Positions 4,631 through 39,600 are shown, numbered from the stretch's first letter. The stretch: 64,000 nt of DNA from Clostridia bacterium (GCA_017510825.1 JAFWMA010000004.1:40987-104986), one strand, 5' to 3'. The notes: generated by a model not told the origin, from the sequence alone. Translations and numbers: made by a program.

Positions 4631-4636
4631 GCTCTT

Positions 4637-5529: not shown

Positions 5530-6861
5530 ATGGATTTTGAAAACTACACACTAGTAGAATTAAGACAAATAGCAAAGGAGAAAGGAATAAAAAATGTTAC
5601 AAAATATAAAAGACAAGAGTTATGTGATTTAATTAATGAGACACTAGCTAATAACTCAAGCAATAAAAATACGCTACCATCAAATATAAAAGAGGAAATA
5701 GAAGAGGAATCCAGAGTAGTAGAAGGCTATACTTTAAGTAGCTCAAATGATACAATAGCAGAAGGTATATTAGAAATATTACCAGATGGATATGGATTTT
5801 TAAGAGGTAAAAATTATCTTTCAACACCTAATGATATATATATATCACCGGTACAAATAAGAAGATTCAGATTAGACAATGGAGATAAAATTAAAGGAGT
5901 AGCAAGGAAACCTCAAGAAGGAGAAAAGTTTCCAGCACTAATATATGTTGGAGAAGTAAATGGGCAACCTCCAGAACAAGCTTATAGAAGAGTTAAATTT
6001 GATGATTTAACACCAATATATCCAAATGAAAAAATAAAATTAGAAACAAATCCAAAAGAATATTCAACTAGAATTATTGATTTACTATGTCCAATAGGAA
6101 AAGGACAAAGAGGAATGATTGTTGCACCGCCTAAAGTTGGAAAAACAACATTAATAAAAAAGATTGCAAATGCAATATCAACTAACAATCCCGAGATAGA
6201 GCTAATAGTATTGTTGATTGATGAGAGGCCGGAAGAAGTTACAGATATGTGTCGTTCAATAAAGGGAGAAGTTATTTATTCAACATTTGATGAACTTCCA
6301 GAACATCATGTTAAAGTTGCAGAAATGGTTTTAGAAAGAGCAAAAAGATTAATTGAACAACAAAAGGATGTAGTAATACTTTTAGATAGTATTACTAGAT
6401 TAGCAAGAGCATATAACCTTACTGTACCAGCTTCAGGAAGAACATTATCAGGAGGCTTAGATCCAGCAGCGTTGCACAAACCAAAGAAATTTTTTGGTGC
6501 AGCAAGAAATATAGAAAATGGAGGAAGTCTTACAATCTTAGCATCTGCTTTAGTAGAAACAGGAAGCAGAATGGATGATGTAATATTTGAAGAGTTTAAA
6601 GGAACTGGAAATATGGAAGTTGTTTTAGATAGAACACTATCAGAAAAAAGAATATTCCCTGCAATAGATATATATAAATCTGGAACAAGAAGAGAAGATT
6701 TACTTCAATCAAAAGAAGAATTAAAAACTGTAAATTCAATAAGAAAGTCTATGCTATCAATGCAACAAAGCGATAAAACAGAAGAACTAATATCACAAAT
6801 CATTACAACAAATACAAATAAAGAATTAATAGAAAAAATAAATAAAATTTTTAAAAAATAG
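5530..6861 (+). CDS. rho: transcription termination factor Rho
   Basis: 443 aa. N-terminal Rho_N ([13 protein letters not shown]), cold-shock-like RNA-binding region, Walker [19 protein letters not shown], and the C-terminal ATPase. Confidence 0.9.
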
Positions 6862-6949
6862 AAAAATATATTTACAAAAAACTACAAAAAATATATAATT
6901 AATATAAATTTGTTAATAATAAATTTATAATTAAATAAAAGGGAAAAAT

Positions 6950-9688: not shown

Positions 9689-9821
9689 ATTATAATAATA
9701 AAGATGTGGCACTTGTTATATATATTGCAAGTGCTACATTAACGGACTCTAAAATATCTAAACCAACAAATTGTAATTTTATAAATAATAAGAATAACTA
9801 ATAGTAGAAAGGATAAAAAAA

Positions 9822-12059
9822 ATGGAGTTTAAACAATGGAATGATTTTAAAAAAGGAATATGGAACAAGGAAGTAGATGTGAGAGATTTTATACAAAAAA
9901 ACTATACACCTTATGAAGGCAATGACTCATTTTTATCTAAGGCAAGTGATAGCACAAAAGAATTATGGAATATAGTAACTGAATTATACAAAAAAGAAAG
10001 AGAAAATGGTGGTGTTTTAGATGTTGCAACAGATATTCCATCAAACATTAATTCATTTGAAGCAGGTTATATTAATAAAAAACTTGAAAAAATTGTTGGA
10101 CTTCAAACAGATAAACCACTAAAAAGAGCCATTATGCCAGAAGGAGGTATACGAATAGTCGAAAAATCTTGTGAAGCATATGGTTTTAAGGTATCAGAAA
10201 AAATAAAAAACATCTATCATAATTACAGAAAAACACATAATGATGGAGTGTTTTCTGCATATACACCAGAAATCAGGTCTGCTAGATCAAGTAAGTTATT
10301 AACAGGCTTACCAGATGGATATAGCAGAGGAAGAATAATAGGTGATTACAGAAGAATTGCACTATATGGAGTAGATTATTTAATAGAACAAAAAAAAGAC
10401 GATTATGAAAATGCAAAATCTAGTTGGATGTGTGATGAAATTATTAGAGAAAGAGAAGAAATAACTGAACAAATAAAGGCGTTAGAAGAACTAAAAAAAA
10501 TGGCAGAAAGATATGGTTTTGATATATCACAACCTGCTTCAAATGCAAAAGAAGCAGTTCAATGGTTATACTTTGGATATCTAGGAGCAGTAAAACAACA
10601 AAATGGAGCAGCAATGAGTATTGGAAGAATCTCTACTTTTTTAGACATATATTTTGAAAGAGATTTAAAAAAAGGAAAATTAAATGAATCACAGTGCCAA
10701 GAAATAATGGATCATTTTGTAATGAAACTAAGATTAATAAGGTTTTTAAGAACACCAGAATATGATGAACTATTTAGTGGAGATCCAGTTTGGATTACAG
10801 AAAGTATTGGAGGTATGGGAATAGATGGAAGAACACTAGTTACAAAAAATTCTTTTAGAATTATTCATACACTTGAAACTATGGGAACAGCTCCTGAGCC
10901 GAATTTAACTGTACTATGGTCAACAAATCTTCCAAAAAATTTCAAAAACTATTGTGCTAAAATGTCGATTAAAACAAGTGCAATTCAATACGAAAATGAT
11001 GATCAATTGAGACTATACTTAGATGATGACTATGGAATAGCATGTTGTGTTTCACCAATGAAAATAGGAAAACAAATGCAATTTTTTGGTGCACGTGCAA
11101 ACCTTGTAAAAACACTAACCTATGCGATAAATGGTGGTAGAGACGAAATAACTGGAAAACAAGTAACAAGTAAATTTGAACCTATTACATCAGATAAACC
11201 ACTAGAATTTAATGAAGTATGGCAAAAATATACACAAATGATGGACTATGTTGCTAAAATATATATAGATGCACTTAATATAATTCACTATATGCATGAT
11301 AAATATTCATATGAGAGCTTAGAAATGGCACTACATGATAAAGATATAATTAGAACGATGGCTTGCGGAATTGCAGGGCTATCAGTTGCTGCTGACTCAT
11401 TATCAGCAATAAAATATGCCAAAGTAACTCCAATAAGAGATAATACAGGTTTAGTAATAGACTACAAAATTGAAGGAGACTTTCCTAAGTTTGGAAATGA
11501 TGACGATCGAGTAGATAGTTTAGCTTGCCTTATACAAAAAACATTTATGGAAAAACTAAGTGAACAAATGACCTATAGAAATGCTAAACCAACTTTAAGT
11601 ATACTAACAATAACATCAAATGTTGTATATGGAAAGGCAACTGGGAATACACCAGATGGAAGAAGAGCAGGAGAGCCATTTGGACCAGGAGCAAATCCAC
11701 TACATGGTAGAGATACAAATGGAGCTATATCAGCACTTAATTCACTTGCAAAATTAAAATTTAAATATTCACAAGATGGAATATCATACACATTTGCAAT
11801 TACACCAGAAACACTTGGAAAAGAAAAAAGCACACAAATTAAAAATCTAATAGCTTTACTAGATGGTTATTTTGTTCAAATGAGTCACCATATAAACGTA
11901 AATGTATTTAATAGAGATTTATTAATAGATGCAATGAATCACCCAGAAAAATATCCTCAACTAACAATAAGAGTTTCTGGCTATGCAGTTAACTTTATAA
12001 AATTAACTAAAGAACAACAACTAGATGTAATAAATAGAACAATACATGAAAAGATTTAA
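9822..12059 (+). CDS. pflB: formate C-acetyltransferase (pyruvate formate-lyase)
   Basis: 745 aa with the glycyl-radical motif RVSGYAV near the C-terminus and a typical PFL N-terminus. Confidence 0.9.
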
Positions 12060-12160
12060 AAAAATAAGATTTTAAATATACTATTAAAAAAAACTTTCTT
12101 TTATCCTGGATGCACTAATATAGTAAATAAAAAGTTAATAAATGGAAGAGAGAAATAACA

Positions 12161-12887
12161 ATGTCAAATATAAAAGGTAGAGTTCACTCATTTGAATCAT
12201 TTGGAACACTAGATGGGCCACGGAATAAGATTTGTTGTATTTATGCAGGGGTGCATATTAAAATGTAAATATTGTCAAAATAGAGACACATGGAATAGAC
12301 AAGGTGGAAGAGAATACACAATTGATGAAATAATAAAAAAAATAAAAAGAGAAAAGTCATTTATTGATGCATCACAGGGAGGAGTAACAATATCAGGAGG
12401 AGAACCCTTGCTTCAGGCAAACTTTATACTAGAATTGTTCAAAGAATTAAAAAAACAAAATATAAGTACTGCCATAGATACATCAGGTGCAATTAAAATT
12501 AATAAAACAATAATTGATCTACTAAAATATACAGACCTAGTATTGTTAGACATAAAACATATAGATGAGGGGAAGAGTATTGAATTAACAGGTTTATCAA
12601 ACAAAAACGAACTAGAGTTTGCAAAATATTGTTCAGATAATAAAATCAATTTATGGATAAGACAAGTATTAATTCCAAAATATACAGATAATAAAGAAGA
12701 TCTTGAAAAAACATATAATTTTATAAAAACACTAAAAACTGTAAAAAAAGTTGAAATTTTACCATATCATAATTTAGGAAAATATAAATGGGAAAGATTA
12801 GGATTAAAATATCCATTTGAAGAAGTAAGTACACCAAGCATAGAAGATATAGAAAAAGCAAAAAAAATACTAAATATAAAAGAATAA
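12161..12887 (+). CDS. pflA: pyruvate formate-lyase activating enzyme, interrupted by an apparent 1-nt insertion
   Basis: The frame from ATG 12161 (RBS GGAAGAGAG) gives MSNIKGRVHSFESFGTLDGP and then stops. The next frame, from 12213, gives GIRFVVFMQGCILKCKYCQNRDTW, the radical-SAM CxxxCxxC motif. An extra c after ggg cca (about 12219-12221) breaks the conserved DGPGIRF. Confidence 0.7.
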
Positions 12888-12936
12888 ATATATTTAAATA
12901 ATAATATATAATAGTAAAAACAAAGAAGAGAGTAAG

Positions 12937-12962
12937 AAAGCTTTACTAAAAGCTTTCAATTT
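12937..12962 (+). terminator. hairpin GAAAGCTTT-ACTAAA-AGCTTTC after pflA
   Basis: Perfect inverted repeat directly downstream of the pflA stop codon. Confidence 0.5.
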
Positions 12963-13812
12963 GTTGTATTGAGAGTTGCGTGAAATGTAAGTTTTGCGCA
13001 AAAAGAGATAGGAGAAAAACATGTATATGTAAAAAGCTCCTATCTCGCTATGTTTTAGGCTTTTCAGTACTTTTAGACTAATATTTAAAACAACAACTTA
13101 TATTACTTTATTATTAAAATGTCTTATATTCGATCCTGGAGCTTCATTTATTTAAGCTTATTCCAGGATTTTAATTTTATCTTATATAATTTCATTTCAA
13201 AAAATTTTTATTATTATAATTTTATATCTATTATATGAAAAATTTTTCAAAAATCTCCAAATCCTTTATTTTCAACATTTTGCCGTTTTTTATAGACAAC
13301 AAACTATATGCCCTTTTTATAAAAACGCCTTAAAATCGATTCTCGTGCGTCGTTTTTTTGACCATTTTTCAGCAATTTTCAGAAAGTGTTAATTTACCAA
13401 TATTTATAGCTGATTAATATAAATTTTACTTTAAATCAAATATTTAGATTATAAATCTTAAACATGTAACTTGTTAGATTAAATATAAAAATGTCTTAAA
13501 ATCAATTTTAAAGCGTTTAATTTATAAAATAATATTAGTAGTTTAATAATTAAATCTGATTTGTAAATTTATAAAATTATCCATTATAATATGTTAAAAT
13601 TTCATTCATAACAAATGTTCGGTTTTTAATTTTATTGTTCGTAATTTTAATTTTTTATTTATAAATTTTATTTTTATGATTTTGCTTAAGTAAAATTTTT
13701 TTTGAAATACTTTTTGTAAGGTCTTAAGATTTAGTTTTGAAATTTTATTTATTTTTAAAATCTTCAATTTTTTAAAACTACCTCTCTCTCCTACTTTTAT
13801 ATTTTTACAGAA

Positions 13813-13848
13813 AAAAACTTTTGGATGGTAGGCTCCAAAAGTTTTTTT
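13813..13848. terminator. bidirectional terminator-like hairpin AAAAAACTTTTGGA...TCCAAAAGTTTTTTT
   Basis: An 8-bp stem flanked by an A-run and a T-run, immediately 3' of the reverse-strand 13851..14240 gene. Confidence 0.55.
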
Positions 13849-13850
13849 AT

Positions 13851-14240
13851 TTACAATCTAATTTTAACATTATAACCTGTAAAAATTTCTATTTTCTCTT
13901 TAATTGCCAATTCAGCATCTCTGCATGAATAACTCTCATCAAGACTAAAGTGGGCGTTTGCAACAATAAGAAGTTTTTTTGGTGAATCAGAAACGATTTC
14001 AATTTTATAAATATCATCCTGCGTCATTTGATCTTTCATAGTAGATAAAACCTCTTTTTTAGCATATTCAATCACTTCTTCTTCCGACAGATCTAATCTA
14101 AATGCTGCTTCAATGTCTTCATTTTCGAATAGAAGTTTAAGAACTCTTACTATAATATCATAAGATCTTAATAAACTATTATCTTCTTTTAATTTTGGAC
14201 CTATAACCCGAACTACATCTTCTAAAGTAATAGCTTCCAT
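13851..14240 (-). CDS. small protein, possibly Asp23/Gls24 (alkaline-shock) family
   Basis: ATG at 14240 preceded by AGGAGG. The ORF track extends it to a TTG at 14258. The C-terminal ...AELAIKEKIEIFTGYNVKIRL loosely resembles the Asp23 C-terminus. Confidence 0.35.
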   Translation of the reverse strand: MEAITLEDVVRVIGPKLKEDNSLLRSYDIIVRVLKLLFENEDIEAAFRLDLSEEEVIEYAKKEVLSTMKDQMTQDDIYKIEIVSDSPKKLLIVANAHFSLDESYSCRDAELAIKEKIEIFTGYNVKIRL

Positions 14241-14679
14241 AATATACCTCCTAAGCAATTGCTTAATTGATTTAGTACATGTCCTACCACATTACTAATT
14301 ACTTAATGAATTCTTGTTGATTATATCATTTTTTTGCATATATTGCAATTATTTAGGAGGTACTATTATCAAAGTTTTGCGCAATAAAGAATAGGAGTAA
14401 AATATATGGACGACCTACCCAGGTGTCCTACAACATATTGATATATCAATGCTTTTAGCGCTTTATAGCTTATTTTTTAGTTTTCTAAAACTCCCCCCTC
14501 TCTCCTACTCTTCTTCTTTTGGTAAAATCAGATTTTGTACTTTTTATTACTCCAATTACAAGTATTAAATCTATATTCAAAAAATATTACACTTCAGTGA
14601 TTTAATCAATAATTTATTGCATTTTAAATAATAATAATATATAATAAAATTATCAACTAATATAAAAGGAGTTTAATAT

Positions 14680-15675
14680 ATGATTAATATAGATGACAAC
14701 CCAGAATTTTTAAATACATTTTTAGAATACTCACTTGCTTATAAACACAAATCTCCAAATTCTGTTGATCAATATAATAGTGATTTAATAATGTTTTTAA
14801 GATATATGAAATATCATTTAAAATTAACTAAAGAAAAAGAATTTAGCAAAATAATTATAAAAGATTTTTCAATTTCACAATTGTCTATAATAACTCAAGA
14901 AGATATACATTCTTTTATATCATATTTATCAATAAATAGAAGGTGTGGTCCAGCTACTTGTGCCCGAAAGATTTCAACAATAAGAATTTTCTTCAAATAC
15001 TTAACTATTACAACACATGTATTATCAACAAATCCAGCCCAAAACTTAGAAACTCCAAAACTGAACAAACGACTACCAAAATATCTTACTTTAGAAGATA
15101 GCCAAAAGCTACTTAATGCAACACAAGCAGATGAAGATTCTAAAAATAGTGAAAGAGATTTTGCAATAATAACATTGTTTTTAAATTGTGGTTTACGTCT
15201 TTCAGAACTAGTATCTATAAACATATCTGACATTAAATTTGATGAATGTAAATTAACAGTTATAGGAAAAGGAAATAAAGAAAGAACTATTTATCTTAAT
15301 AAAGCTTGCATAAAAGCAATAAATAATTATTTAAAAATAAGACCAAATAATGCAAAAAAAGATTCTAAAAACTCAGATAAAGCATTATTTTTAAGTGCAT
15401 ATAGACAACGTATAAGTAAAAGAACTGTAGAAAATATAGTAACCAAAAAACTCCAAAAGGCTGGTCTAGATACATCAAAATACTCAACTCATAAATTAAG
15501 ACATACTGCAGCAACTTTAATGTATCAATATGGTCAAGTAGACATACGTGCACTACAAGAATTACTTGGACATGAAAGTATTGCAACTACTGAAATATAT
15601 ACACATGTTGACAATAATCAAGTACGTCTTGCAGTTGAGTCTAACCCATTATCTGATTTTGGAACAAAAAAATAA
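14680..15675 (+). CDS. tyrosine site-specific recombinase (XerD/XerC-like)
   Basis: 331 aa. N-terminal SAM-like domain, then C-terminal ...HKLRHTAATLMYQYGQVDIRALQELLGHESIATTEIYTHV containing the R-H-R-Y catalytic residues. The flanking genes are housekeeping genes, so a chromosomal Xer is more likely than a phage integrase. Confidence 0.75.
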   Translation: MINIDDNPEFLNTFLEYSLAYKHKSPNSVDQYNSDLIMFLRYMKYHLKLTKEKEFSKIIIKDFSISQLSIITQEDIHSFISYLSINRRCGPATCARKISTIRIFFKYLTITTHVLSTNPAQNLETPKLNKRLPKYLTLEDSQKLLNATQADEDSKNSERDFAIITLFLNCGLRLSELVSINISDIKFDECKLTVIGKGNKERTIYLNKACIKAINNYLKIRPNNAKKDSKNSDKALFLSAYRQRISKRTVENIVTKKLQKAGLDTSKYSTHKLRHTAATLMYQYGQVDIRALQELLGHESIATTEIYTHVDNNQVRLAVESNPLSDFGTKK

Positions 15676-15809
15676 CAAACTATATCACCTAAATCAATAA
15701 ATAATCATAAAATATAGTATAATTATGAAAACAAATTATGCTATATTTTTTTGGTTTATAGATTCCATAAAAATCTAAATAATAGTTCAAGGAGAAAGTT
15801 AATTAATAA

Positions 15810-16388
15810 ATGAGTTTACAAAAAATAAATATAGGCTTTGCTATAACTGGATCTTTTTGTACATTTTCTAAAACAATTATACAAATAAAGAAAATAATTA
15901 AAGAAGGAGCAAATGTTATTCCTATTATGTCATATAATTCATACAATCTTAATACAAAGTTTGGTAAAGCCCAAGATTATATTAAGGAAATTGAAGAAAT
16001 AACAAAAAATAAAATTATTCATTCGATTAAAGAAGCTGAACCTATTGGACCAAAAAAAATAACAGATATAATGATCGTTGCTCCAGCATCAGGAAACACA
16101 ATTGCAAAATTAGCTAATGGAATTAATGATACACCCATAACTATGGCAGTAAAATCACATTTAAGAAATAGCAAACCACTTGTTTTAGCAATTTCAACTA
16201 ATGATGCATTAAGTGGTAGTGCAGAAAATATTGGGAAGCTATTAAACAGAACGAACTACTATTTTGTACCATTTAGGCAAGATAATCCAATCACAAAACC
16301 TCGATCAATAGTTTTCGACCCAAATTATATAATTAAAACAATTAAATATGCAATGAATAATGAACAAATACAACCTATATTACTTTAA
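15810..16388 (+). CDS. flavoprotein of the dipicolinate synthase subunit B / CoaC-like family
   Basis: 192 aa. The family pattern is INIGFAITGSFCTF...VAPASGNTIAKLANGINDTP. No dpaA-like partner was seen. Confidence 0.5.
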   Translation: MSLQKINIGFAITGSFCTFSKTIIQIKKIIKEGANVIPIMSYNSYNLNTKFGKAQDYIKEIEEITKNKIIHSIKEAEPIGPKKITDIMIVAPASGNTIAKLANGINDTPITMAVKSHLRNSKPLVLAISTNDALSGSAENIGKLLNRTNYYFVPFRQDNPITKPRSIVFDPNYIIKTIKYAMNNEQIQPILL

Positions 16389-16451
16389 AATAACTAACTC
16401 CCAGTTGCTACACAATCTGGGAGTTTAATAATTATAATAGAATTAAAAAAA

Positions 16452-17348
16452 CTAATTACTATTTTTTGATCCACTCATAGTTTCATTCAAAAAATCTTTA
16501 TAAGTAGATTTTATTTTTATCTCTGGATTAGTAAAACTAATACTACCTTTATTATCTATCGAATAAGTATAAGTAGCATCAACTGGCGTATTCTGTGGAA
16601 TTGAATTTACTATACTTTTATCACTAGATGGTTTACCGTTATATGTAATAACTCCACCATTACTTTTTCTAGTTGCCTGAATAATAATAGAATTATCAAT
16701 AAACTCAACACTTTCAATAATCATTCCTTTATTTTTGCTATCTAGGTCATATAATTCTTCAATTTTACCATTTTTATCTACTATATATAAGCGAATATTA
16801 CGATAATCAACTGAATTATGATTAGTAAATACTAAATATTCTCCTACTTTATAAAAATTAAAAGTAAATGACGGATTAGCATCTGTCTTAAAATCACTAT
16901 TATATAAACCGTCCTTAATAGTTTCACTATTATTAATATTTATTTCAATACTATTACTATCAGAATCTGTAATCTTCAATTTAGCCTTATAATCACTATC
17001 CAATTGATATTCTTTCTCTCTTCCCTTTTCTTTAACAATCTTTATACTATAACATTTAATTTGCTGCTTAGCTGAAGAGAATTTAACATTAGAATCTAAA
17101 GTTGAAACATTATTTCCAATAATATTAATTACTCCTTCTGGTACAGAATTATAGTCGTAATCAACATCTTGTAAATTACTTTTCTCTGCATTATCCCTGA
17201 TTTTATTATTTTCTTCCCCTACTTTCTTAAATTGACTGAAAAAGTAAAAAGCAATAACTAGAACAATTATTACAAACATAATAATTGTAATTATAATTAT
17301 TATATTACTAATTGAGGTGTTTTTTTTATTTCCCATGTTTTCCTCCAA
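16452..17348 (-). CDS. hypothetical membrane-anchored protein
   Basis: 298 aa with an N-terminal TM helix (IIIIITIIMFVIIVLVIAFYFF) and then an extracytoplasmic domain. Confidence 0.4.
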   Translation of the reverse strand: MEENMGNKKNTSISNIIIIITIIMFVIIVLVIAFYFFSQFKKVGEENNKIRDNAEKSNLQDVDYDYNSVPEGVINIIGNNVSTLDSNVKFSSAKQQIKCYSIKIVKEKGREKEYQLDSDYKAKLKITDSDSNSIEININNSETIKDGLYNSDFKTDANPSFTFNFYKVGEYLVFTNHNSVDYRNIRLYIVDKNGKIEELYDLDSKNKGMIIESVEFIDNSIIIQATRKSNGGVITYNGKPSSDKSIVNSIPQNTPVDATYTYSIDNKGSISFTNPEIKIKSTYKDFLNETMSGSKNSN

Positions 17349-19786: not shown

Positions 19787-19905
19787 ACCTATTCCTCATT
19801 ATACATATATTATATAATATGTTTATAAAAAATAAAAGATTATCCTATATAAAAAAGGATAATCTTTGCGTTTTAACCTAAATTATTATCAATATGGTTG
19901 TACTT

Positions 19906-21093
19906 TTATAATATTAAAAATCTCCGCTCAAATTGATGTTCTGCCCTTTTAGACATTCTTTTAGTTTTATTCCATATACTAGTCTTAGTATTTTCTTTAA
20001 ATCTCGTTCCAGTTTTATTTTTTCTGTTTTGACTTTTACTATCTATTTTATCAGCACTATCAATATGCTCCAAACTTTCATATACTTTTTCATCCTGTTT
20101 AACAATCATAGGATACAATTCAAATTTAATTTTAAATATTTTGAAATCCTCTAATTCATTCTTATCTAAACAATCCAAATAAACATCTAATTCATAAATA
20201 TTTCTACAAGCTGAAATAATTGCCGGATGCAAAAATCTTTTTCCAATCATTTCAGTAGCTAATACTATGCTGTCAAAAATACTATAACCTTCTCTTTCTT
20301 TAGCAAGTTTCATTGTTTCTTTATATCTACTAAGAAATTGAAAATTATAGTCTGAAAAATCTCTTACAAAGTTTTCATTAATTACTTCTTCTAAATCTTT
20401 GTATTTACTATTTTCATTATTATAAATCTGTTCAACTTCTTTTGCTGTATATGGTAAAAATACTTTGTTGAGCTTTTCTGATATTAATAAAGTATCATTA
20501 TTTTTCAATTCTTTTTCTCCTATTTTTTTATTTGATTGAAGATTTTCTGTAGAAATTTCTTTTTTTTCACTTGTATTTTCGACATTTGATATAAGTTTAT
20601 CATCATACTTATTACTTTTCTCAATTGTTTTTTCTAATACTAATGTTTTTTTCTCATTTGCTTTTTCATGTTTTAATGAAGACTCAGTAATCACACTCTT
20701 AATAAATAATACATTAGTATTATCCTCAGAAAGATAATAGTTTAAAAACTTATCTTTTATTTCTTCATATTTTTTATTGTATGAGTATATTTTTTTTCTT
20801 TCCAAATTCATTTTTTTAGATAGATTACATTTGCTAAGCATTTCATCTAATAAAGATATATTTTTATCAATTATTTGAATTTCCTTTTTAAAATTGGCAA
20901 GACTATTATTTAATTCTTGTTCACTTATTTTATTTCTATACTCAATATTAGAATCCTTATGATTTTTAATATAATTTAAATAAACGTGATATAAATTAAT
21001 CCTATTTTCATATAAATCTTTATACTTATTAAGTTCAATAATATCTTGATTAATTTGTTCTTTCCAAGAATTTTTTTTGTAATAAATTATCAT
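19906..21093 (-). CDS. hypothetical Lys/Glu-rich coiled-coil protein
   Basis: 395 aa. Its start overlaps the sipW-like stop in an ATGA arrangement, and it is followed by a rho-independent terminator at 19836-19870. Confidence 0.4.
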   Translation of the reverse strand: MIIYYKKNSWKEQINQDIIELNKYKDLYENRINLYHVYLNYIKNHKDSNIEYRNKISEQELNNSLANFKKEIQIIDKNISLLDEMLSKCNLSKKMNLERKKIYSYNKKYEEIKDKFLNYYLSEDNTNVLFIKSVITESSLKHEKANEKKTLVLEKTIEKSNKYDDKLISNVENTSEKKEISTENLQSNKKIGEKELKNNDTLLISEKLNKVFLPYTAKEVEQIYNNENSKYKDLEEVINENFVRDFSDYNFQFLSRYKETMKLAKEREGYSIFDSIVLATEMIGKRFLHPAIISACRNIYELDVYLDCLDKNELEDFKIFKIKFELYPMIVKQDEKVYESLEHIDSADKIDSKSQNRKNKTGTRFKENTKTSIWNKTKRMSKRAEHQFERRFLIL

Positions 21094-21710
21094 ATTATAT
21101 CTTCCTCTTCATATTTAGCAGTATTATAGTGCTTTCTAGCATCTTCTCTTGCAATCCTTCTCTCCTCTTTTCTACTTGATCTAAAATAAGAAACTATAAT
21201 TAGTAAACAAATAATAACAATACCTGTCCCAGTAAGCATATTAGTAAGAACAGATCCAAGTTTACTTATTTTAAAAACTAAAGTTCCTTGAATTTGATTA
21301 GGATGTACAAGTTCATTATCAACTGAATTGTTATTATCACCTTTAGTTTGATACAGTGTTTCTCCATTTTCAACTATAATATCAGAAATTCTATGAGTTA
21401 CTGTATCTTTTTTATTATCTAAAACATAATTAATAACGTCTCCTACTTTCAAGTCTTGAATAGAAGTCTCTCTTATAATAATTAAATCACCAATATTATA
21501 GTTTGGCTCCATACTCCCAGTCATAACCATATAAGCTCTATATCCTAATATATTGATATTTTCTTCATGTTTAACAAATTTCATATAACCCGCATATAGA
21601 ATTAATAAGAGAATTGCTGCAGTAAAAGGAAAAAATATAATTTTTAATACACTTCTTATTTTATTACTATTACTTTTCTTTTTTTTAATAATTTCTGTTG
21701 TATAAATCAT
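21090..21710 (-). CDS. sipW: signal peptidase I, archaeal/ER type (SipW-like)
   Basis: 206 aa. N-terminal TM, catalytic Ser box YMVMTGSMEPNYNIGDLIII, His box DTVTHRISD, box E TKGDNNNSVD, and a C-terminal TM. Confidence 0.75.
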   Translation of the reverse strand: MIYTTEIIKKKKSNSNKIRSVLKIIFFPFTAAILLLILYAGYMKFVKHEENINILGYRAYMVMTGSMEPNYNIGDLIIIRETSIQDLKVGDVINYVLDNKKDTVTHRISDIIVENGETLYQTKGDNNNSVDNELVHPNQIQGTLVFKISKLGSVLTNMLTGTGIVIICLLIIVSYFRSSRKEERRIAREDARKHYNTAKYEEEDII

Positions 21711-21731
21711 ATTTTCTCCTTTATCATTAAC

Positions 21732-23807
21732 CTATGGTTGTTCTAAATGTAATGTTTTATATTCAGTATTATTTATTGTTTCTGTTCCATTAACTTTTAC
21801 TAAATCTTGATCTTCATCATCAATATTTCCAGAAATAGCATCATTTATACCTTTTATTATTCCATCATAATAATTTAATGTACCAGCATTTAAAATTCCA
21901 TAATCGGCTCCAATAATAACTGGTACACTTGAAGGATCTCCATCTTTTTCACCTAATGTTAATGTTGCACTATTACCAATAGCTTGCTGACTTGATGCAA
22001 TAATTGTACCTCCTGTTATAAGCATTGTACCTCCATTCATATTCTGTACTGTTGCTCTTCCAATTGGATCCCCAGTACGTATACCATTAGGAGAAGCTTC
22101 CAAGTACGAATTATCTGTTATTTCAACATATCCTCCATTGTTATAAACAGCCTGCCTGTCAGTTGTAATAGTTACTCTAACTCCACTAATCTTCAAAGTT
22201 CCTGTAGGTTCATTATCAATAGCTCCATTATATACATTAGATTGAACATTTCCATTAATTATTTCTAATACACCTTCATTTTTAATAACTGCAAAATTGC
22301 CACCATAATTTGAAATTGTATTTCCATTTAAATCAAGTACAATATTTTTACCCTGAGGTATTGAAATTGCTTCACTTGTATTCTCAAGTATAGTCAAAAC
22401 AGTTTTAGTATTATTAGGAACTTGTTTTAATGCTTCCTTAACTGAAGGATAAACATTATTATTGTATTGTACAACATTTCTTGCAGTCCAATGTGCAAAA
22501 ATTGTTATGTCACTGCTTGGACTATAACTTGATGTTACCTCTTCTCCACCATTCTTAGCAGTAAACCATCCATTAAATATGTGACCAACACGAGTTGTTG
22601 TTGGTAAGGTTCCAATAGAATCTCCTACATATATCGTTCTTGTAGTTTCGCTAACATCTCCTCCATTTGCATTAAATGTTATATCTATAAAGTTGTCATC
22701 TAATATTGCTGATTTATATCCTTCAGCATCTGCACTAGTAAATATTACACCAGTGTGATCTTCTTTTGAAGTAATCTTAGCTAAATCATTAATTGGATTA
22801 GTTATTCCTTTAATTATACCATCATAAAAACTATATGATGTTGTACTAGTTACTCCATATTTCTTTCCTTTAATTTCTAAAGCATCACTGTTGTATGTTC
22901 CATCTTTTGTACCTATGGTTAGTACTCCTTTGTTTTCAATACCAGATTGTCCAGTAGAAACTATAGTTCCACCTGTTATTGTCATTTTTGATCCAACAGT
23001 ATTATTAGTTACAGCAGGTCTTTCTGTTGTCGTTGCACTTAAACTTGCATTTCCTGATATTTCTACTGTTCCACCATTATTATAAAGTGCTTGTCTACCA
23101 CCTGTTGATATTATACTTCCTCCTGTTATATACATCTTTGCACCAGCATTATTATTTACAGCACCATTTGTAGAAGCAGAAGATGATATTGTTCCATTTG
23201 AAATTCTCAATGTTCCTGAATTTGAGATTACATTTGTATTTCCATTATTTGAAACAGTAAAGTTTTGTAAATTTAAATATATGTTTTTTCCTTCTCCTAT
23301 TGTTAAAGTTTCACTAACATTTTTTAATAAAGTTACAGTCACTTCATTTTCACTTGCCTGCACACTATTTATGGCTTGCTGAAGTGTATCAAAATAAGTT
23401 CCATTTACTACTGCAGCTTTTTGTGTCCAAGTTGCATATAAATTAATTTCATTTCCAGTAATATATGATGTAAGATTCATTGATTGTTCATCTACGTAAC
23501 TAGTCCCCTGCCCATCTGCTTGAGTATTCCACCCAGCAAAATTATAATTAGAATTAGTAAAAGTATTTTTAGTTAGATTAGTAGGTACACCATAAGTTAT
23601 TGGAAGATTATTCATTTGTCCTGTTCCACCATTACTATGAAATATTACAGTATATGTCGACGACCTTGTTTCTTTAGCATCTCCAGCAACATAAGCAGTG
23701 ACGCTAGCATTATATCTCATAAAAGTCGGCAAAATTGTTGCAAAAACAATAAACAAACAAATTGAAATTAAAATATATTTAATTCTAATTTTTGTTATTT
23801 TCTTCAT
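21732..23807 (-). CDS. large secreted protein with Listeria-Bacteroides (Flg_new) repeats and pectate-lyase-like beta-helix repeats, with a SipW-cognate-type signal peptide
   Basis: 691 aa. There are two ...NGG...W-containing Flg_new-like segments (VIFHSNGGTGQM...YATW; ITFNANGGDVSE...FAHW) and many Gly/Asn-rich beta-helix rungs. The signal peptide ends ...LPTFMRYNASV, like those of the TasA-like neighbours. Confidence 0.55.
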   Translation of the reverse strand: MKKITKIRIKYILISICLFIVFATILPTFMRYNASVTAYVAGDAKETRSSTYTVIFHSNGGTGQMNNLPITYGVPTNLTKNTFTNSNYNFAGWNTQADGQGTSYVDEQSMNLTSYITGNEINLYATWTQKAAVVNGTYFDTLQQAINSVQASENEVTVTLLKNVSETLTIGEGKNIYLNLQNFTVSNNGNTNVISNSGTLRISNGTISSSASTNGAVNNNAGAKMYITGGSIISTGGRQALYNNGGTVEISGNASLSATTTERPAVTNNTVGSKMTITGGTIVSTGQSGIENKGVLTIGTKDGTYNSDALEIKGKKYGVTSTTSYSFYDGIIKGITNPINDLAKITSKEDHTGVIFTSADAEGYKSAILDDNFIDITFNANGGDVSETTRTIYVGDSIGTLPTTTRVGHIFNGWFTAKNGGEEVTSSYSPSSDITIFAHWTARNVVQYNNNVYPSVKEALKQVPNNTKTVLTILENTSEAISIPQGKNIVLDLNGNTISNYGGNFAVIKNEGVLEIINGNVQSNVYNGAIDNEPTGTLKISGVRVTITTDRQAVYNNGGYVEITDNSYLEASPNGIRTGDPIGRATVQNMNGGTMLITGGTIIASSQQAIGNSATLTLGEKDGDPSSVPVIIGADYGILNAGTLNYYDGIIKGINDAISGNIDDEDQDLVKVNGTETINNTEYKTLHLEQP

Positions 23808-23824
23808 TATTACTCCCTTATTAA

Positions 23825-24442
23825 TTAATTAACAATTAGTTGACTTACAGCTATATGTGGTTCAATAGAAAAACCATTTTCTTTTATAATATCTGCAGGA
23901 AAAGGTATTTTACAATATACCCTATACCTCCTAATCGAAGTATTATTTAGTGCAATATTCCCTTCAGGTAAAGATATATCTTCGCTTAATAAAACACGTG
24001 TTGTATCAGGATATTCTGTTTGACTTAATGTTTCATTCTCTCCAATATTAACATATTTTTCATATTTTTTTATTAATGTACCATTAGGCAAATTCGAATT
24101 AGTTAAATCAATATCAATTGAATAAGATATTGCAACCTCAGTTAAAACTGGATTTATTGTTATATCAAAATAGCAATCATCACCCGAATCAATAACAGTT
24201 AAATTATCACTCAAATTATATAAACTAATATCTGTACTTAAATCACTTGAAGTAGGCGTTAATTCTTCACCATTAATTTTTATAGACCATTTTGCAATAT
24301 TAATTAAATTTTCTCCAACTGCTCCATTTATATATCTTGAAATAGTACCAGAAAATAATATTAGTATTAGAAACAATAGTAACAATCTCAAATATGGTTT
24401 CATACTTTTTCTGTTATGATATTTATAGTGATATCTTAGCAT
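23825..24442 (-). CDS. TasA/camelysin-like secreted protein (SipW-cognate signal peptide)
   Basis: The start is probably ATG 24442 (AAGGAG 11 nt upstream) or 24393 (MKPYLRLLLLF...). The signal region ...SGTISRYINGAVGENLINIAKWSIKING is paralogous to the next gene. Confidence 0.5.
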   Translation of the reverse strand: MLRYHYKYHNRKSMKPYLRLLLLFLILILFSGTISRYINGAVGENLINIAKWSIKINGEELTPTSSDLSTDISLYNLSDNLTVIDSGDDCYFDITINPVLTEVAISYSIDIDLTNSNLPNGTLIKKYEKYVNIGENETLSQTEYPDTTRVLLSEDISLPEGNIALNNTSIRRYRVYCKIPFPADIIKENGFSIEPHIAVSQLIVN

Positions 24443-24549
24443 ATTAACACATACTCCTTTGTTCTTATTTTTTGTCCGCTCAAATCTACATATTAGTTTT
24501 CTAGTTATAATATGCACATTTGGGCGGAAAAAGTTTCCGCTCAAATAAA

Positions 24550-25170
24550 TTATATACTTTGTTTAGCTGTAATTGAAACACTTGCAGTTGGTGACACATC
24601 AGCCCATCCATTAGCTGTATCTGCTGCACTTCTATTATCACTGTCATTATCCCATGTTACTGTACCAACTACAGTAACAGTTTTTCCTGCTGTAACATCA
24701 GCTAAAGCTTCTGTAAATTCTACTGCAGTACCTCCAGGAGTAATAGTTTGAGCACTACCACCCTGAACAGTATATGTTACACTAGTTAATTCAAGCTTTG
24801 AACCACTATCAGTTAATCCTGTAATTGCACCAACCGATAATGAATAATCAATAGCAACTTCAGAACCACTTGGATCAATAACTAATGTAAATGTAGCCGA
24901 ACCACTTGGTGCAATTTTATTTGCACTAACTTTAGCATTAGCTACATACTCTAAAGGAACCGTTAAATCTCCAGTTATATCTTTCATGTCAGTGTTATTA
25001 ATTTTTACAGACCATTTTGCAATATCAATCGTTGCATTTCCACTTGCAGAATTTGTATATCTAGTATAAGTTCCTCCAATAATAGCAACTAGTAAAAATA
25101 AAATCAAAGCTAATATAGTCCATTTTTTTGCTGAAGTAGTTTTAGAATTATTTTTAGACATTTCTTTCAC
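24550..25170 (-). CDS. TasA/camelysin-like secreted protein (SipW-cognate signal peptide)
   Basis: 206 aa, ...IIGGTYTRYTNSASGNATIDIAKWSVKINN, a G-G-T-Y-x-x-Y-T signal-peptide class like TasA/CalY. Confidence 0.5.
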   Translation of the reverse strand: MKEMSKNNSKTTSAKKWTILALILFLLVAIIGGTYTRYTNSASGNATIDIAKWSVKINNTDMKDITGDLTVPLEYVANAKVSANKIAPSGSATFTLVIDPSGSEVAIDYSLSVGAITGLTDSGSKLELTSVTYTVQGGSAQTITPGGTAVEFTEALADVTAGKTVTVVGTVTWDNDSDNRSAADTANGWADVSPTASVSITAKQSI

Positions 25171-25275
25171 CTCCTTTTTAAAATATAAAATTAATATATA
25201 AATAGTCCCATAATGAAATTAGAAGACTAATTATAGCTAATTAAAACTAATATCTAATATAATGTTAAATGATTA

Positions 25276-25752
25276 TTATTCTTTCTCAATCATATTTGCA
25301 TCTTTAGCATCAATCTTTTTTGCAAAATAAATGCAAACTTCACCAATCAATAAAATAAAACAAGAAATTATAATAATCATAAATGGCTGGCAAATAACAT
25401 ATAATATTGAACCTAACTTTGGAATTTTAAATACAACAACTCCTTCAACCTTATCAAAATTTACATTTTTTGATGATATAGTAACTCTATCACTATCATT
25501 TCGATATGCAATAACACTATTTACTTTTAAACTATCTTTTATTTCATTAAACGTAATAACTAAATCCCCATATTCTAACGATTCATCCATACTGTCATCA
25601 AAAACAACAAACATTTTATATCCGAAAATATCAGGTATTTTTTCTGGTTCAAAAAACTTTTGATATACAATACGGATTGAAGCTATAGCAAGAGGAATAA
25701 ATACTAAAATAAATATTACATCTCCAATTGATTTTCTAAAATTATTTTTCAC
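25276..25752 (-). CDS. degenerate SipW-like signal peptidase paralog (Ser box altered, His box and box E absent)
   Basis: 158 aa, alignable to the 206-aa SipW (FGYKMFVVFDDSMDESLEYGDLVI vs LGYRAYMVMTGSMEPNYNIGDLII; VVVFKIPKLGSIL vs TLVFKISKLGSVL). THR is replaced by TIS and the GDNN segment is missing. Confidence 0.5.
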   Translation of the reverse strand: MKNNFRKSIGDVIFILVFIPLAIASIRIVYQKFFEPEKIPDIFGYKMFVVFDDSMDESLEYGDLVITFNEIKDSLKVNSVIAYRNDSDRVTISSKNVNFDKVEGVVVFKIPKLGSILYVICQPFMIIIISCFILLIGEVCIYFAKKIDAKDANMIEKE

Positions 25753-26003
25753 TTTTCCCTCTTAATACTTAATTAAAAATTACCTAACTTATAAGAATAT
25801 TTATACTACATAAATTTATCACTTTTACATTCATTTGTAAACCTGTAAAAAAGAACAAAAAAAGACTTAAAGCTAACTTATTCTAAGCATTAAGTCGTTA
25901 TTTTACAAAAATATTATTTTTTTTTTACTTTTTTTACAAAAATATTACAAATATAACAAAAAATCTTATAACAAAGCAGTAAAACTTATATTATAAGATT
26001 TTT

Positions 26004-26549
26004 CTAAACAATATGTTGGGTAATGATTACGTAAAAAGGCACTTTTATTTTTTCACTTAAAACAAAAGATTGATCTTCATCTGAAACATTATCTAACCAC
26101 TCTACTTCAAATGTAAAAACTAGTTTCCCATCTTCATTAGAAAACAACATATTATCTCCTAATGAAATTGTTTTAACTGTTCCAAGGGTATAATTAATAT
26201 CATTAATCTTTGATATAAACTTAAATGAATTACCAAACTTAGAAGTATCTGCATTTACTAAAATATCAACTGGTTCATTAAAGTCAATAATATTGATCTC
26301 AATTTCTGCAATAGCTTTTAATCCAGGTGCAAATTTACCTTTTTCTACATTCCCGTTATCCTGAACATTAAAAAATATCTCTTGTTCATTATATAGTTCT
26401 TTAGTATCTGACAGAATAGCTATTTTACAATTATCTTTCATATTATTAGATATATCAAAAAATTTAGCATAATTACTACTTGATAATAAAAAAAAGATAG
26501 TAAGTGTAAATAAAATAATAGCAATTCTTTTTGCTACATTTTCAAACAT
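26004..26549 (-). CDS. TasA-like secreted protein (third paralog)
   Basis: 181 aa. The signal peptide ends ...SSSNYAKFFDISNN (compare TasA ...WAAFNDIKS). Internal KFAPGLKAIAEIEINIIDFNEPVDILVN parallels KIAPSGSATFTLVIDPSGSEVAIDYSL of the 24550..25170 product. Confidence 0.45.
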   Translation of the reverse strand: MFENVAKRIAIILFTLTIFFLLSSSNYAKFFDISNNMKDNCKIAILSDTKELYNEQEIFFNVQDNGNVEKGKFAPGLKAIAEIEINIIDFNEPVDILVNADTSKFGNSFKFISKINDINYTLGTVKTISLGDNMLFSNEDGKLVFTFEVEWLDNVSDEDQSFVLSEKIKVPFYVIITQHIV

Positions 26550-26723
26550 TTAAATACCTCAACTATTATTATTACACTTACTATTATACCATTAAATAGT
26601 ACTTTATGTCAACTGTTTATGTTTTTCTGAAGGTGTTTTACAATTTCATCATTTTATATTTCCTTAAAAAATTAGTTCATATTAAGTTACAACCACTCTT
26701 CATTTCTTTTTATATAAACCTTT

Positions 26724-27121
26724 TTATACATTTGAATTAAAAATATATAACGATTTAGCCATACTACCAAAGTAAGTATGATTCTCTGTTGATAATACAA
26801 TAGCTTTGCTACTTCCACTTACAATATTGGTGCCCATAAATCCAATATTAGAAATGTCAGTTACTATTTCATATTCCTTTAGCTCTGCAAACTTTTCTAC
26901 AGGATTAGATTCTCCTGTAACCTTTTTAAAAAAGAATTATTATTTTTTAAATCTATTATATTCTTCCCATATTTTTCTAGTCTTTCATCTTCATCAACCA
27001 CACTTATTCCATTTAAAGATGTTTCATATTTTTTTAATAATTTATCTATCTTTAGTTTACTATTTTCTTTAATTAATTTTTCTACAACTTTGTAATTTTC
27101 GTTATTATTCACCTTTTTCAT
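26724..27121 (-). pseudogene. P-type cation-transporting ATPase (MgtA-like) N-terminal remnant
   Basis: A 74-aa ORF with intact RBS AGGAG and start encodes the Cation_ATPase_N region (LLKKYETSLNGISVVDEDERLEKYGKNI...FLKRLQENL). After a frame change it continues as ...TGESNPVEKFAELKEYEIVTDISNIGFMGTNIVSGSSKAIVLSTENHTYFGSMAKSL and then stops. The TM1-2 region and everything after the actuator domain are missing. Confidence 0.6.
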
Positions 27122-36674: not shown

Positions 36675-39600
36675 CTATTCTACACTTTTTAAGGATTCAA
36701 TCATTTTTACTTTTTTTAGCATAAAATGAACACCTATACCTATAATCAAAGCATAAAGCATAATAAATCCAGCTGTTTTTATATAACTAACTATCTCTAT
36801 TTGTTTTACTAAGTATATTTGACTAAAATTAATATTTTTTATCAATATATTAGAATACAGGTCTCCTACAACTATTCCTAACAAGATACCTAAAATAACA
36901 ATATTTAATTGTTCTTTTAAAATATATTCATCTACATTGTTTTCAGAATATCCCAATACTTTTAAAGTTGCAATTTCTCTTTGTCTTTCACTTATTGTTA
37001 TATATGCTAAACTATACATTACTACAAATGACAGCAATGCAGAAAATACAACTAAAACGACAATAATACTATCAAATGCTCTTAACATAGTTTTAAAACT
37101 TTCCTTTAAATAGCTTACAGACATTGTTGTTAACACATGTTCATTTTCATTTAATTCTGTTATAATGTTTTCGGTATTTTCTAAATTATCAAACTTTATA
37201 AAAGCACAGTTTATAAAAAACTTATCAATACTGTCTGTATAGGATTGCCTATTCATATAAATATAATTATCTACATAGTTTTCTGTAATAGAAGAGATTT
37301 TAAATTTTTGTAAAACATTATTGCTATCAACAAATTCTATCTCATCTCCAACTTTTTTATTAAGATTTTCAGCTAAATTTGAAGTTATAATTGCTTCATT
37401 ATCTTTTAATTCTAATATTTCACCGGTTTTATAATCTTTTATATTAAAAACACTATTAAAAGCGTTAATATCATTAGGAATTATGAATGTTGCTCTATTG
37501 TCTTGGAATTCAACTAATGAAGTTTTTACATATACTATTTTTTCTATTTTTTCATAATTAAATACTTCATTTAGTTCATTTTCAGTTAAAGATCCATCTA
37601 GATTAACAATTTGATCATAATCACTGATTTCAGTAAATTGCTTGTCTATAATGTTTAACATTGAATCTTTTATCGCATATCCCGATATTAGAAGTGAAGT
37701 ACATCCAACAAATCCTAATAATGACATTATTACTCTCTTTTTGTATCTAAATATATTTCTTGCCATTATTCTATTATTAAAGCTTATTCTTTTCCACAAA
37801 AAATTTATTTTTTCTAATAATATCTTTTTTCCTATTGGTGGTGAAATTGGTCTAAGCAATATTGTTGCATCTTGCTTTAATAATTGGTTTGCTACCAGTA
37901 ATGTTGCCCCCACAATCGCTATAAGAGCACATACATTTCCAACTATAATTGCCCAAATATTTATAGTTGTTTCAAATACTGGTACCTGGTATATATCATT
38001 AAATATATTATAACATAAATACGACAATCCATAATTTCCAATTATTGCACCAAAAATTCCACCTATTAAAGTAGCAAGTAGTGCATATAAAATATATTTT
38101 AATCTTATTTCTTTATTAGTAAATCCTAAGGCTTTCAATGTACCTATCTCTGTTCTATTCTCAATAGCCATTCTTGCCATTAACAATAAACTAATAAAAA
38201 TTGTAACAAAAATGAATATTACAGGAAATGTTTTTGAAAGATTATCAAAGCTTTTACATAAACTCATATACGTACTATATTCATAATTATCATTTCTATC
38301 ACTAATATAAAAAGTAGCTTTTTCTATATTTTCAAGTTCTTTTCTTGCATCTTTTATTTTTTGTTCTGCATCACCTTTTTTGTTATTATATTCTTGTAAT
38401 CCTGCATTATATTCATTTAAACCTGTATCATAATTTTCCTGTCCTTCATTATATTGCTTTAAACCTGCATTGTATTTTTCTTTAGCTGCATTCAAATTTC
38501 TTTTTTGTCTTTCAAGCTCTTTTTTATTTTTATCATATTCTGCATAGCTTGAGTTGTACTTTTGCAATCCTTCATTATATTGTTCTAGCCCTGCTTCATA
38601 TGTTTCTTTGGCATTATTTAGAGTTTTCTTTTGATTTTCTAATTCTTTTTGACCATCTTCAATTTGAACATATCCATCTTCAATTTTCAAAATTCCATTA
38701 GCAACTTCTGTTATTTGATTGAGAATTGTTGCATCTACATTATATAATACTGCAAGTTTTGTTAATTCTTGTATTGCCTTTTCTTTAGTTCCATATGTAT
38801 TTATTGCATTATTTATATTATTTAAAGCATCTTGATAAGATATATTATATTGTCCAATTTCTGTATCAATCTTTGACTTTTGACTATCTAGTTCATTTTT
38901 TGAACTAATCAATTTTTGTTCATAGCTATTAAGTTCTTTCTCTGATTTATCTAAATCATTTTTTGAATTATCCAAAGTGTTTTTTGTATCATCTAATTTT
39001 TCTTTTCCAGCATCTAACTCTGTTTTTGCACTATTTAACTTTTTTTGATATTCCTTAATTTTTGTTTCAGCATTGTCAATTTCTTTTTTTGAAAAATCTA
39101 ATACATTTTTGGTATTATCTAATTCTTCTTTTGCTGAATCTAATTCTGATTTAGCATTATCAAGTTCATTTTTAGCATTTTGTATTTCACTATTAACCTT
39201 TGTTTCTTCTTCATTAATTTTATTATTTGCTTCATCTATGATTCTTTGATACTTTTCTTTTTCAAGTTCCTCTTTAACTGTGTTTAAAGCTTCTTTATCT
39301 TTTCTTAGTATATCTTTATATTCATCAGAATCAACTTTTAAATCTTTGATTTTTTCATCTACTATATAAGCTGTTGTATAGTGTTCAAAATCAAAATAAT
39401 CATTCAATGCAAATAAACAAAAACTAACTCTACCAGAACCTACATTAGATGTTCCTCTTGTATTAATCATTTTATTTTTGATAAGAAAATCTGTACTTAA
39501 TGCAGAACCTACAATTTTTATTAGTTCTTCGTCTATCTTTATAGTATCGCCAACATGGATGTTTTGTAAATCATTTATACCATATTCTATTAACATTTCA

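Follow-up and report, generated by a model that had tools for sequence, protein, structure and literature searches.

A candidate SipW-dependent surface fibre and adhesin operon with an unannotated subunit family and a putative pseudo-peptidase in a Clostridia genome

In Gram-positive and archaeal biofilms, fibres of the SipW/TasA type are a main protein scaffold, and recent work has shown that the diversity of the TasA superfamily goes far beyond the annotated Peptidase_M73 family. In Bacillus subtilis, the system is encoded by the tapA-sipW-tasA operon, and the TasA fibre is available as PDB 8AUR (PMC9674648, PMC10151520). In Clostridium perfringens, the operon sipW-bsaA-bsaB-bsaC encodes the peptidase, two divergent subunits and a protein of about 70 kDa with a von Willebrand factor A (vWA) domain (PMC11580942). 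The AbpX, AbpA, Tafi and CanA/CanX loci combine major and minor subunits with a variable predicted tip protein, a signal peptidase I (SPase I) and an SPase-associated accessory protein, DUF5305 (10.64898/2026.01.04.697558, PMC9245690). Here we analyse a 64,000-nucleotide stretch of DNA from a Clostridia bacterium (GCA_017510825.1 JAFWMA010000004.1:40987-104986), hereafter the window, in which seven open reading frames (ORFs) occupy positions 19906-26549, all on the minus strand and all where the original prediction, made from the sequence alone, had placed them. That prediction described an expanded SipW/TasA-like locus with two archaeal-type signal peptidases, three TasA-like proteins and a 691-residue beta-helix/Flg_new protein, the four putative substrates sharing one signal-peptide class.

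On balance, we take this locus to be a SipW-dependent operon for a surface fibre and an adhesin, similar to those of the TasA superfamily. It would combine an unannotated subunit family with an adhesin of matching leader, a pseudo-SipW and a partner protein in the cytoplasm; polymerisation of the subunits and cleavage of their leaders are predicted from the sequences. The argument starts with the leaders. The four N-terminal strings GGTYTRYTNSA, SGTISRYINGA, LPTFMRYNASV and SSNYAKFFDIS are real, and each follows a single N-terminal hydrophobic segment. A single leader class for all four proteins holds in part: the A-type subunit, the B-type subunit and the 691-residue protein share T-x-x-R-Y, but the 181-residue paralogue, judged by its sequence, carries a different leader from A and B, with an ordinary A-x-A-like site. 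Its Y-A-K-F-F-D string does not hold up as a conserved motif, as the orthologues in other cassettes, where they sit between A and B, have leaders reading (V/A)YA-KN(S/N), with an ordinary A-x-A-like site and no T-x-x-RY. The pattern [TS]xx[RK]Y after a hydrophobic stretch occurs in 4 of the 191 six-frame ORFs of the window; three of these are the adjacent genes described here and one is an antisense ORF, so the clustering of the motif is not due to chance.

The same gene order recurs in loci from metagenome-assembled genomes (MAGs) and metagenomes, numbered here with the prefix L: pseudo-SipW, A, in some cases the 181-residue type (C), B, the large protein, SipW and a relative of the 395-residue protein (395-like). 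A four-gene core of pseudo-SipW, A, SipW and 395-like, without B and the large protein, is found in L003/L007 and L008. The leader of the large protein goes with that of the local subunit. Both read T-x-x-RY in the window, L001 and L015, TFARY in L034 and FSKY in L020; in L004 and L016 the subunit has (Y/F)AIYR and the large protein FSIYR, and in L019 the two read MLAYFTDTD and IYAYFTDFV. In L019, moreover, the subunit is a weak Peptidase_M73 match, an S26/SipW gene stands between it and the large protein, and the AYFTD leader is on both. With one representative per lineage in four lineages, the true pairing of subunit and large-protein leaders was the best of 24 permutations. The proposal that the large protein is tied to a SipW system is supported by the L019 operon and by leaders that match in four lineages.

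The related loci also differ among themselves. In L020 (7461-10082), the 691-residue orthologue and a 169-residue subunit, both with FSKY, stand alone, and the roughly 8 kb to each side hold no peptidase gene; the peptidase would thus be encoded elsewhere, or a general one would be used. L004 (10001-18865) and L016 (5538-14517) hold distant versions, in which the Flg_new protein is 2,000-2,053 residues long, has a Y_phosphatase3 domain and begins with the leader GSFSIYRE, a match to that of the local subunit; between subunit and SipW lies a PASTA-domain protein of 388-397 residues. L019, L004 and L016 are simpler relatives, without the pseudo-SipW and 395-like genes. In L015 (1-19956), the entire cassette has a Mob_Pre relaxase, two toxin-antitoxin pairs, TnpV and serine recombinases around it, which suggests that it can be carried by a mobile element. 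Labelled relatives of the locus come from Clostridia or Bacilli MAGs (uncultured Bacillota), several of them rumen-derived.

The presumed subunits form a family of their own. The A-type subunit (24550..25161, minus strand; 203 residues from the ATG at 25161) is an acidic beta-sandwich protein by its model, with the leader GGTYT-RY, an AKW motif and a strong AGGAGG ribosome-binding site. The B-type paralogue (23825..24442, minus strand; 205 residues from the ATG at 24442, the start as called in L017) has the leader SGTIS-RY, and the C-type paralogue (26004..26549, minus strand; 181 residues, leader SNYA|KFFD) is a distant member of the A family. Raw ORF calls gave 206 residues for the third ORF (25170-24550) and 239 for the fourth (24544-23825); gene callers on identical metagenome contigs start them at 25161 and 24442, and the position of AGGAGG fits the start at 25161. 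A and B are paralogues by BLASTP (E=1e-11). A profile of the A family (A1) finds B among the window ORFs with E=4.8e-22 and the 181-residue protein, end to end, with E=1.3e-5, the next ORF scoring 0.48. Pfam and NCBIfam scans of all seven proteins returned nothing besides Flg_new and the peptidase, and PDB sequence and profile searches with A and A1 gave only noise. A word-based search with A yielded 40 relatives, none of them annotated; a full profile search yielded 3,979 clusters (at 50% identity) at E<=1e-3 and 1,768 at E<=1e-10. The family is large, and no Pfam or NCBIfam model covers it.

Across 84 representatives (24-42% identity), conservation is among the highest at T34, Y35 and Y38, where the leader ends, unlike in ordinary signal peptides; these residues are followed by A51 and W53, and A87-P88, E104-V105, W173 and Q204 are also conserved. 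No Lys is conserved at 90% or more in this set, and no conserved N-E-K isopeptide triad is evident at the sequence level. The mature small proteins are acidic (isoelectric point 4.3-4.4; 4.4 for the 181-residue protein), about 17-19 kDa in size and free of LPXTG. The AlphaFold2 (AF2) model of A, with a mean predicted local distance difference test score (pLDDT) of 78.5, shows a beta-sandwich; residues 33-55, following the transmembrane helix, form a coil of low confidence. Each cassette holds two or three subunit paralogues. Among the relatives of A, P0164, P0165, P0170 and P0171 have a complete subunit domain fused C-terminally to Flg_new repeats, and P0282 has it fused to DUF4874+DUF4832; therefore, a fibre subunit can carry payload domains directly.

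The large secreted protein (21732..23807, minus strand; 691 residues, about 70 kDa) has the PTFM-RY leader and two Flg_new domains (PF09479, 81.5 bits against a cut-off of 27), in line with the Flg_new label of the original prediction. Its halves are 37% identical over 277 residues (E=4e-41), that is, a duplicated module of Flg_new and beta-helix-like parts. The AF2 model (pLDDT 89.2) has a transmembrane helix at residues 3-29, a disordered segment at 27-47 and, in the remaining part, a run of short strands. The suggested structure prediction supports one part of the expected architecture: Foldseek matches the InlB B-repeat fold (2y5p, TMt 0.82, prob 1.0), while the remaining matches, all to beta-helix proteins (such as pertactin, tailspikes and PL6 lyases), are weak (E 0.03-0.9, low TM), and the beta-helix regions (about 130-370 and 445-690) have no Pfam match to PF13229 and relatives. 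The protein has no LPXTG. It has more than 480 homologues, annotated at most as 'InlB B-repeat-containing protein', and forty 691-like orthologues fall into the leader classes PTFM-RY, canonical AYF(T/S)D and TFS-KY; the SipW-cognate signal model TIGR04088 matches none of ten such orthologues with AYF(T/S) leaders. A short N-terminal segment has alternating hydrophobic residues (V36, A38, V40), and the protein has no subunit domain. A donor strand AK(W/E) common to subunits and the 691-residue protein was considered, but it has no statistical support from the N-terminal profile and stays conjectural.

Two proteins had been proposed as archaeal-type signal peptidases, and the proposal stands for one. 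The 206-residue protein (21090..21710, minus strand) passes the archaeal-type signal peptidase I model TIGR02228 with 95.7 bits against a cut-off of 51.85 and reaches 86.9 of the 190 bits required by the Bacillus SipW equivalog model. It has the GSMEP Ser, the THR His, KGDNN, two transmembrane segments and a basic cytoplasmic tail, and it is thus the active SipW-type (archaeal/endoplasmic reticulum (ER)-type) signal peptidase I of the locus; the S, H and D of GSMEP/THR/KGDNN are retained in 17 of 17 active orthologues from cassette loci. The 158-residue protein (25276..25752, minus strand) is homologous to this copy (E=1e-13) and keeps both transmembrane segments, but lies under every family cut-off (SipW, 25.6 bits against 190; TIGR02228, 16 bits against 51.85). 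It retains the Ser and lacks about 25 residues holding the His and GDN segments. Its relatives were gathered in MAG loci, and their alignment was then used to scan metagenomes, which gave 31 copies in all. In this family 29 copies have D, K, N, Y or F in place of the Ser, 28 retain the His and 30 are without the GDN Asp; both transmembrane segments are kept, and 19 columns are invariant in a six-sequence alignment. The gene is nearly always first in the cassette, directly 5' of the A subunit. The window copy is atypical, being one of the two among the 31 that have the Ser and the only one without the His-bearing segment of about 25 residues. By these residues, the 158-residue protein is a conserved pseudo-peptidase, not a second peptidase. 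We found no report of an inactive SipW paralogue in the literature.

The last gene (19906..21093, minus strand) encodes a conserved 395-residue protein of unassigned function, with no hydrophobic segment. It belongs to no Pfam or NCBIfam family and has no PDB match, as sequence and profile searches gave noise. Its family has a variable N-terminal part and a C-terminal domain of about 135 residues with 44 invariant columns in six sequences. The active SipW ends in a conserved basic cytoplasmic tail, R-I-A-R-E-x-A-R-K-x-Y-N-x-x-K-Y (21090-21170, minus strand, in the window; also in L001, L003, L006, L008 and L015), and this tail is seen only in cassettes with a 395-like gene and is absent where that gene is absent. 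The 395-like start also overlaps the SipW stop in the window (ATGA) and in L001, L003, L008 and L015. Because the tail co-occurs with the gene and the two genes overlap, we infer that the 395-residue protein may be a cytoplasmic partner that binds the SipW tail. SipW of B. subtilis is said to be bifunctional, and its second function resides in its C-terminal part.

We propose the following sequence of events. Sec would insert the four pre-proteins into the membrane, where the active SipW would cleave A, B and the 691-residue protein at the T-x-x-(R/K)-Y motif or close to it; when the motif is aligned with GTWA|AF of TasA, T or S would stand at -3, and at -1 A, S, T or G in the subunits and Met in the 691-residue class. 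A would then polymerise via N-terminal donor-strand complementation, with B and the 181-residue type as minor or capping paralogues; the coil at 33-55 in the model of A and the disordered segment at 27-47 in that of the 691-residue protein are the one indirect sign of such polymerisation. The 691-residue protein may join the fibre at the end whose acceptor groove is open, the simplest case being a tip adhesin, because it has a leader and a short strand-like segment and lacks a subunit domain; in the polarity proposed for BsaA, the open-groove end is the distal tip (PMC11580942). The pseudo-SipW may bind leaders without cutting them, as a partner of the peptidase or of the assembly site, and the 395-residue protein would bind the cytoplasmic tail of the peptidase.

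Several results weigh against this fibre and adhesin reading. The shared leader is a short motif, compared in four lineages only, with p about 0.04; a profile built from the subunit N-terminus misses the 691-residue protein (E=0.55), and Met at -1 of its putative cleavage site is atypical. The window pseudo-SipW, with its extra deletion of about 25 residues, could be decaying. The models for Peptidase_M73 (PF12389), TasA (NF046066), BsaA (TIGR04090) and the SipW-cognate signal (TIGR04088) match no window protein, and the three small proteins have no PF12389 or NF046066 match at E<=0.1; thus, the profile searches suggested as a check for TasA-like proteins and their signal class picked up none of them. 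Among two sets of 36 and 84 subunit relatives, PF12389 matches none in either; NF046066 matches 1 of 84 (E=0.0075), TIGR04088 2 of 36 (best E=0.0053) and 1 of 84, TIGR04090 one in each set and the TapA model one or two relatives, all of these sub-threshold. Last, with a TasA alignment built from the TasA sequence checked against PDB 8AUR, hhalign gave P=4.5e-4 (3.2e-4 on re-run) for the two alignments with leaders included, pairing GGTY-RY with GGTWAAF and KIAPG…DPTGSEV with NLKPGD…NNGS, and P=0.014 for A1 against the single TasA sequence; but mature regions alone gave P=0.041, on par with the reversed control at 0.048, with shuffled controls at 0.07-0.9. Mature-domain homology to TasA by this route was rejected, since leader-stripped and reversed controls score alike, and so the demonstrable similarity to TasA sits in the leader, not in the mature domain.

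The structural comparison is likewise a weak similarity. By TM-score, the three top Foldseek matches of the A model are a cannula (9h8b) and Hyper2/DUF1102 (9bab), both with TMq 0.36 and TMt 0.46, and the TasA fibre (8aur; TMq 0.36, prob 0.96), within a prob range of 0.96-1.0; the other matches are generic beta-sandwiches, including lectin-like and carbohydrate-binding module (CBM) domains. By the definition in 10.64898/2026.01.04.697558, cannulae, Hyper2/DUF1102 and TasA all belong to the donor-strand fibres of the TasA superfamily. In this operon and in related loci, the subunits are encoded together with a dedicated signal peptidase I of the SipW type. The small proteins, called TasA-like at the outset, are not members of the TasA/CalY family, with no Pfam or NCBIfam match, whereas membership of the subunit family in the TasA superfamily is probable but unproven.

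These results bear most directly on the main rival, in which the locus is a dedicated-peptidase secretion cassette and makes no fibre, the small proteins and the 691-residue protein being independent secreted or surface proteins (for example, glycan-binding ones) that share a SipW-recognised leader. The non-significant mature-domain similarity to TasA, the generic beta-sandwich matches with lectin-like and CBM domains, and the N-terminal profile that does not link the 691-residue protein to the subunits are all what this rival would lead one to expect. It accounts less well for the two or three subunit paralogues in each cassette, for the conservation of the leader-proximal residues and the AKW segment, and for the subunit-payload fusions; furthermore, the best-covering structural matches of A are donor-strand fibres, and the gene content parallels that of TasA-superfamily loci (10.64898/2026.01.04.697558). 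We regard a secretion cassette as a serious contender, if an unlikely one.

A second rival concerns the two novel accessory genes: the 158-residue gene would be a functionless, decaying duplicate and the 395-residue gene an unrelated passenger, with SipW and its substrates as the whole working system. It can draw on the window pseudo-SipW being about 25 residues shorter than its family, on the lack of a recognised domain in either protein, and on L019, L004 and L016, which do without both genes. It is difficult to reconcile, however, with pseudo-SipW ORFs that are intact and in the same position in the 31 MAG and metagenome copies, with 19 invariant columns and both transmembrane segments; with the 44 invariant columns of the 395-like C-terminal domain and the overlap of its start with the SipW stop in several lineages; or with a SipW tail found only where the 395-like gene is present. 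We consider it improbable. Hardly credible is a bona fide expanded tapA-sipW-tasA operon with two active SipW, three TasA/camelysin proteins and four substrates of one SipW-cognate class, which is in keeping with the adjacent active SipW-type peptidase, the hhalign pairing of GGTY-RY with TasA GGTWAAF and of APG…DPTGSEV with KPGD…NNGS, and the large-protein orthologue within a Peptidase_M73 operon, but is already contradicted on three defining points: PF12389, NF046066 and TIGR04088 match no window protein, the 158-residue protein lacks the His and GDN segments and comes from a family without the nucleophile, and the 181-residue leader is a different, ordinary one.

Within the fibre and adhesin reading, a more specific role for the pseudo-SipW can be imagined, which we offer as speculation that is rather unlikely to be right as a whole. 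The protein would be a non-catalytic leader receptor paired with the active SipW, and would select the leader-bearing proteins to be cleaved and those to be left tethered. In this way it would order and anchor a chaperone-free donor-strand fibre, with the 691-residue protein (a strand, no groove) at one end and the C-type subunit (a groove, an ordinary leader) possibly at the other, and with the 395-residue protein coupling the complex to the SipW tail. If true, the pseudo-SipW/SipW pair would be a bacterial counterpart of the multi-subunit signal peptidase complex, or of pseudoprotease/protease pairs.

The transcription signals fit a compact locus. A sigma-70-type consensus promoter, TTGACA-18-TATAAT with a TG extension and 12 of 12 matches, lies at 26583..26612 (minus strand), about 34 nt 5' of the 181-residue gene. 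Directly 3' of the stop of this gene is a hairpin (25958..26004, minus strand) whose 3' arm ends in U6 (free energy -17.4 kcal/mol, z -4.87, 0 of 200 shuffles equally stable), a possible terminator or attenuator setting the gene apart from the remaining operon. In the window genome, the 181-residue gene has moved to a place ahead of the cassette, between a consensus promoter of its own and this hairpin. Genes two to seven are separated by 106, 6, 18 and 22 nt, except for the final pair, which overlaps by 4 nt; 3' of the last gene, a terminator-like hairpin (19825..19867, minus strand) with a 12-bp stem and a U-run marks the end of the operon. Promoter, hairpins and short gaps therefore indicate one or two discrete transcription units. 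An Rfam scan of the locus found no riboswitch and no other RNA. The check for SinR/SinI-like regulators found none adjoining the locus; the nearest regulator is a MarR-type protein beside glutathione peroxidase.

Two other classes of surface fibre were considered and set aside. Sortase-assembled Gram-positive pili are ruled out, as no secreted protein of the locus has LPXTG; no sortase gene is present among the neighbours scanned (about 15.8-30.7 kb). Type IV pilin-like leaders are ruled out by the reading of the leaders, which have no G/F-x-x-x-E motif.

Housekeeping genes flank the operon: release factor 2 (RF2) and a GH30 enzyme lie to one side and a thioesterase, the MarR-type regulator and glutathione peroxidase to the other, with pta-ackA, rho and pyruvate formate-lyase farther out. 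The GC content of the window is about 27% overall. The host appears to be an uncultured low-GC gut-type Firmicute, and the operon a self-contained, chromosomal one. Just upstream of the operon promoter, a 74-residue ORF (26897-27121, minus strand) matches the N-terminal domain alone of cation-transporting P-type ATPases and is probably the remnant of a truncated gene. Genes lie on the plus strand at 135-16388 and on the minus strand at 16452-59292, and the GC skew flips sign at the same place (14000-16500), consistent with converging replication forks at a replication terminus; a Xer-type tyrosine recombinase gene is found near this switch (14680-15675). Unconnected to the operon are a 912-residue protein with papain-like Peptidase_C1 and Big_3 domains (6950-9688, plus strand) and two very large FtsX/MacB-type permeases of 1,041 and 1,181 residues (36675-39800 and 44268-47813, both minus strand).

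The leaders point to a modular rule, by which the leader motif of the payload tracks that of the local subunit; such a rule could predict fibre-displayed adhesins from sequence. The pseudo-signal-peptidase and the cytoplasmic partner, in turn, open the ordering and membrane anchoring of chaperone-free fibres to direct tests. The routing of a large protein via a TasA-type system is itself not new, as exemplified by BsaC (PMC11580942) and by the predicted tip proteins of the AbpX and Tafi loci (10.64898/2026.01.04.697558). What is new is the unannotated subunit family with its own leader motif, the leader-matched Flg_new/beta-helix payloads, the conserved pseudo-SipW and the conserved cytoplasmic partner; our literature search found no report that joins SipW with Flg_new.

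Compared with the B. subtilis tapA-sipW-tasA operon, the locus likewise has a dedicated ER/archaeal-type signal peptidase beside its substrates and a motif across the leader end, GGTWA|AFND there and GGTY(A/T/S)-RY here; TapA, an accessory that shares its leader class and N-terminal strand with the major subunit, is a further likeness. The locus differs in having no Peptidase_M73 match, a TM-score to 8AUR of 0.36 and no TapA homologue, and in its three subunit paralogues, 70-kDa payload and pseudo-peptidase. The SpsA/SpsB pair of Staphylococcus aureus also places an inactive type I signal peptidase paralogue next to its active counterpart; these, however, are P-type (Ser-Lys) general peptidases with no dedicated substrate operon, whereas the pair here is of the ER/archaeal type and lies in a fibre cassette. 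With the TasA-superfamily loci, our locus shares acidic subunits, and the best-covering structural matches of the A model are CanX and DUF1102 fibres. Its accessories are an inactive SipW paralogue and a soluble cytoplasmic protein, not DUF5305, its peptidase has two transmembrane segments, not ten, and its subunit family, compared by name only, is absent from the clusters named in the text of 10.64898/2026.01.04.697558. The C. perfringens bsa operon, too, combines a SipW-type peptidase with paralogous small matrix or fibre proteins and a secreted accessory of about 70 kDa in a host of the class Clostridia, and its subunits are also highly divergent from TasA, the main one being without LPXTG. 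The large protein here, however, is Flg_new/beta-helix-like and not vWA, there is no TIGR04090 match, and our locus adds a pseudo-SipW, a cytoplasmic protein and the leader motif T-x-x-R-Y.

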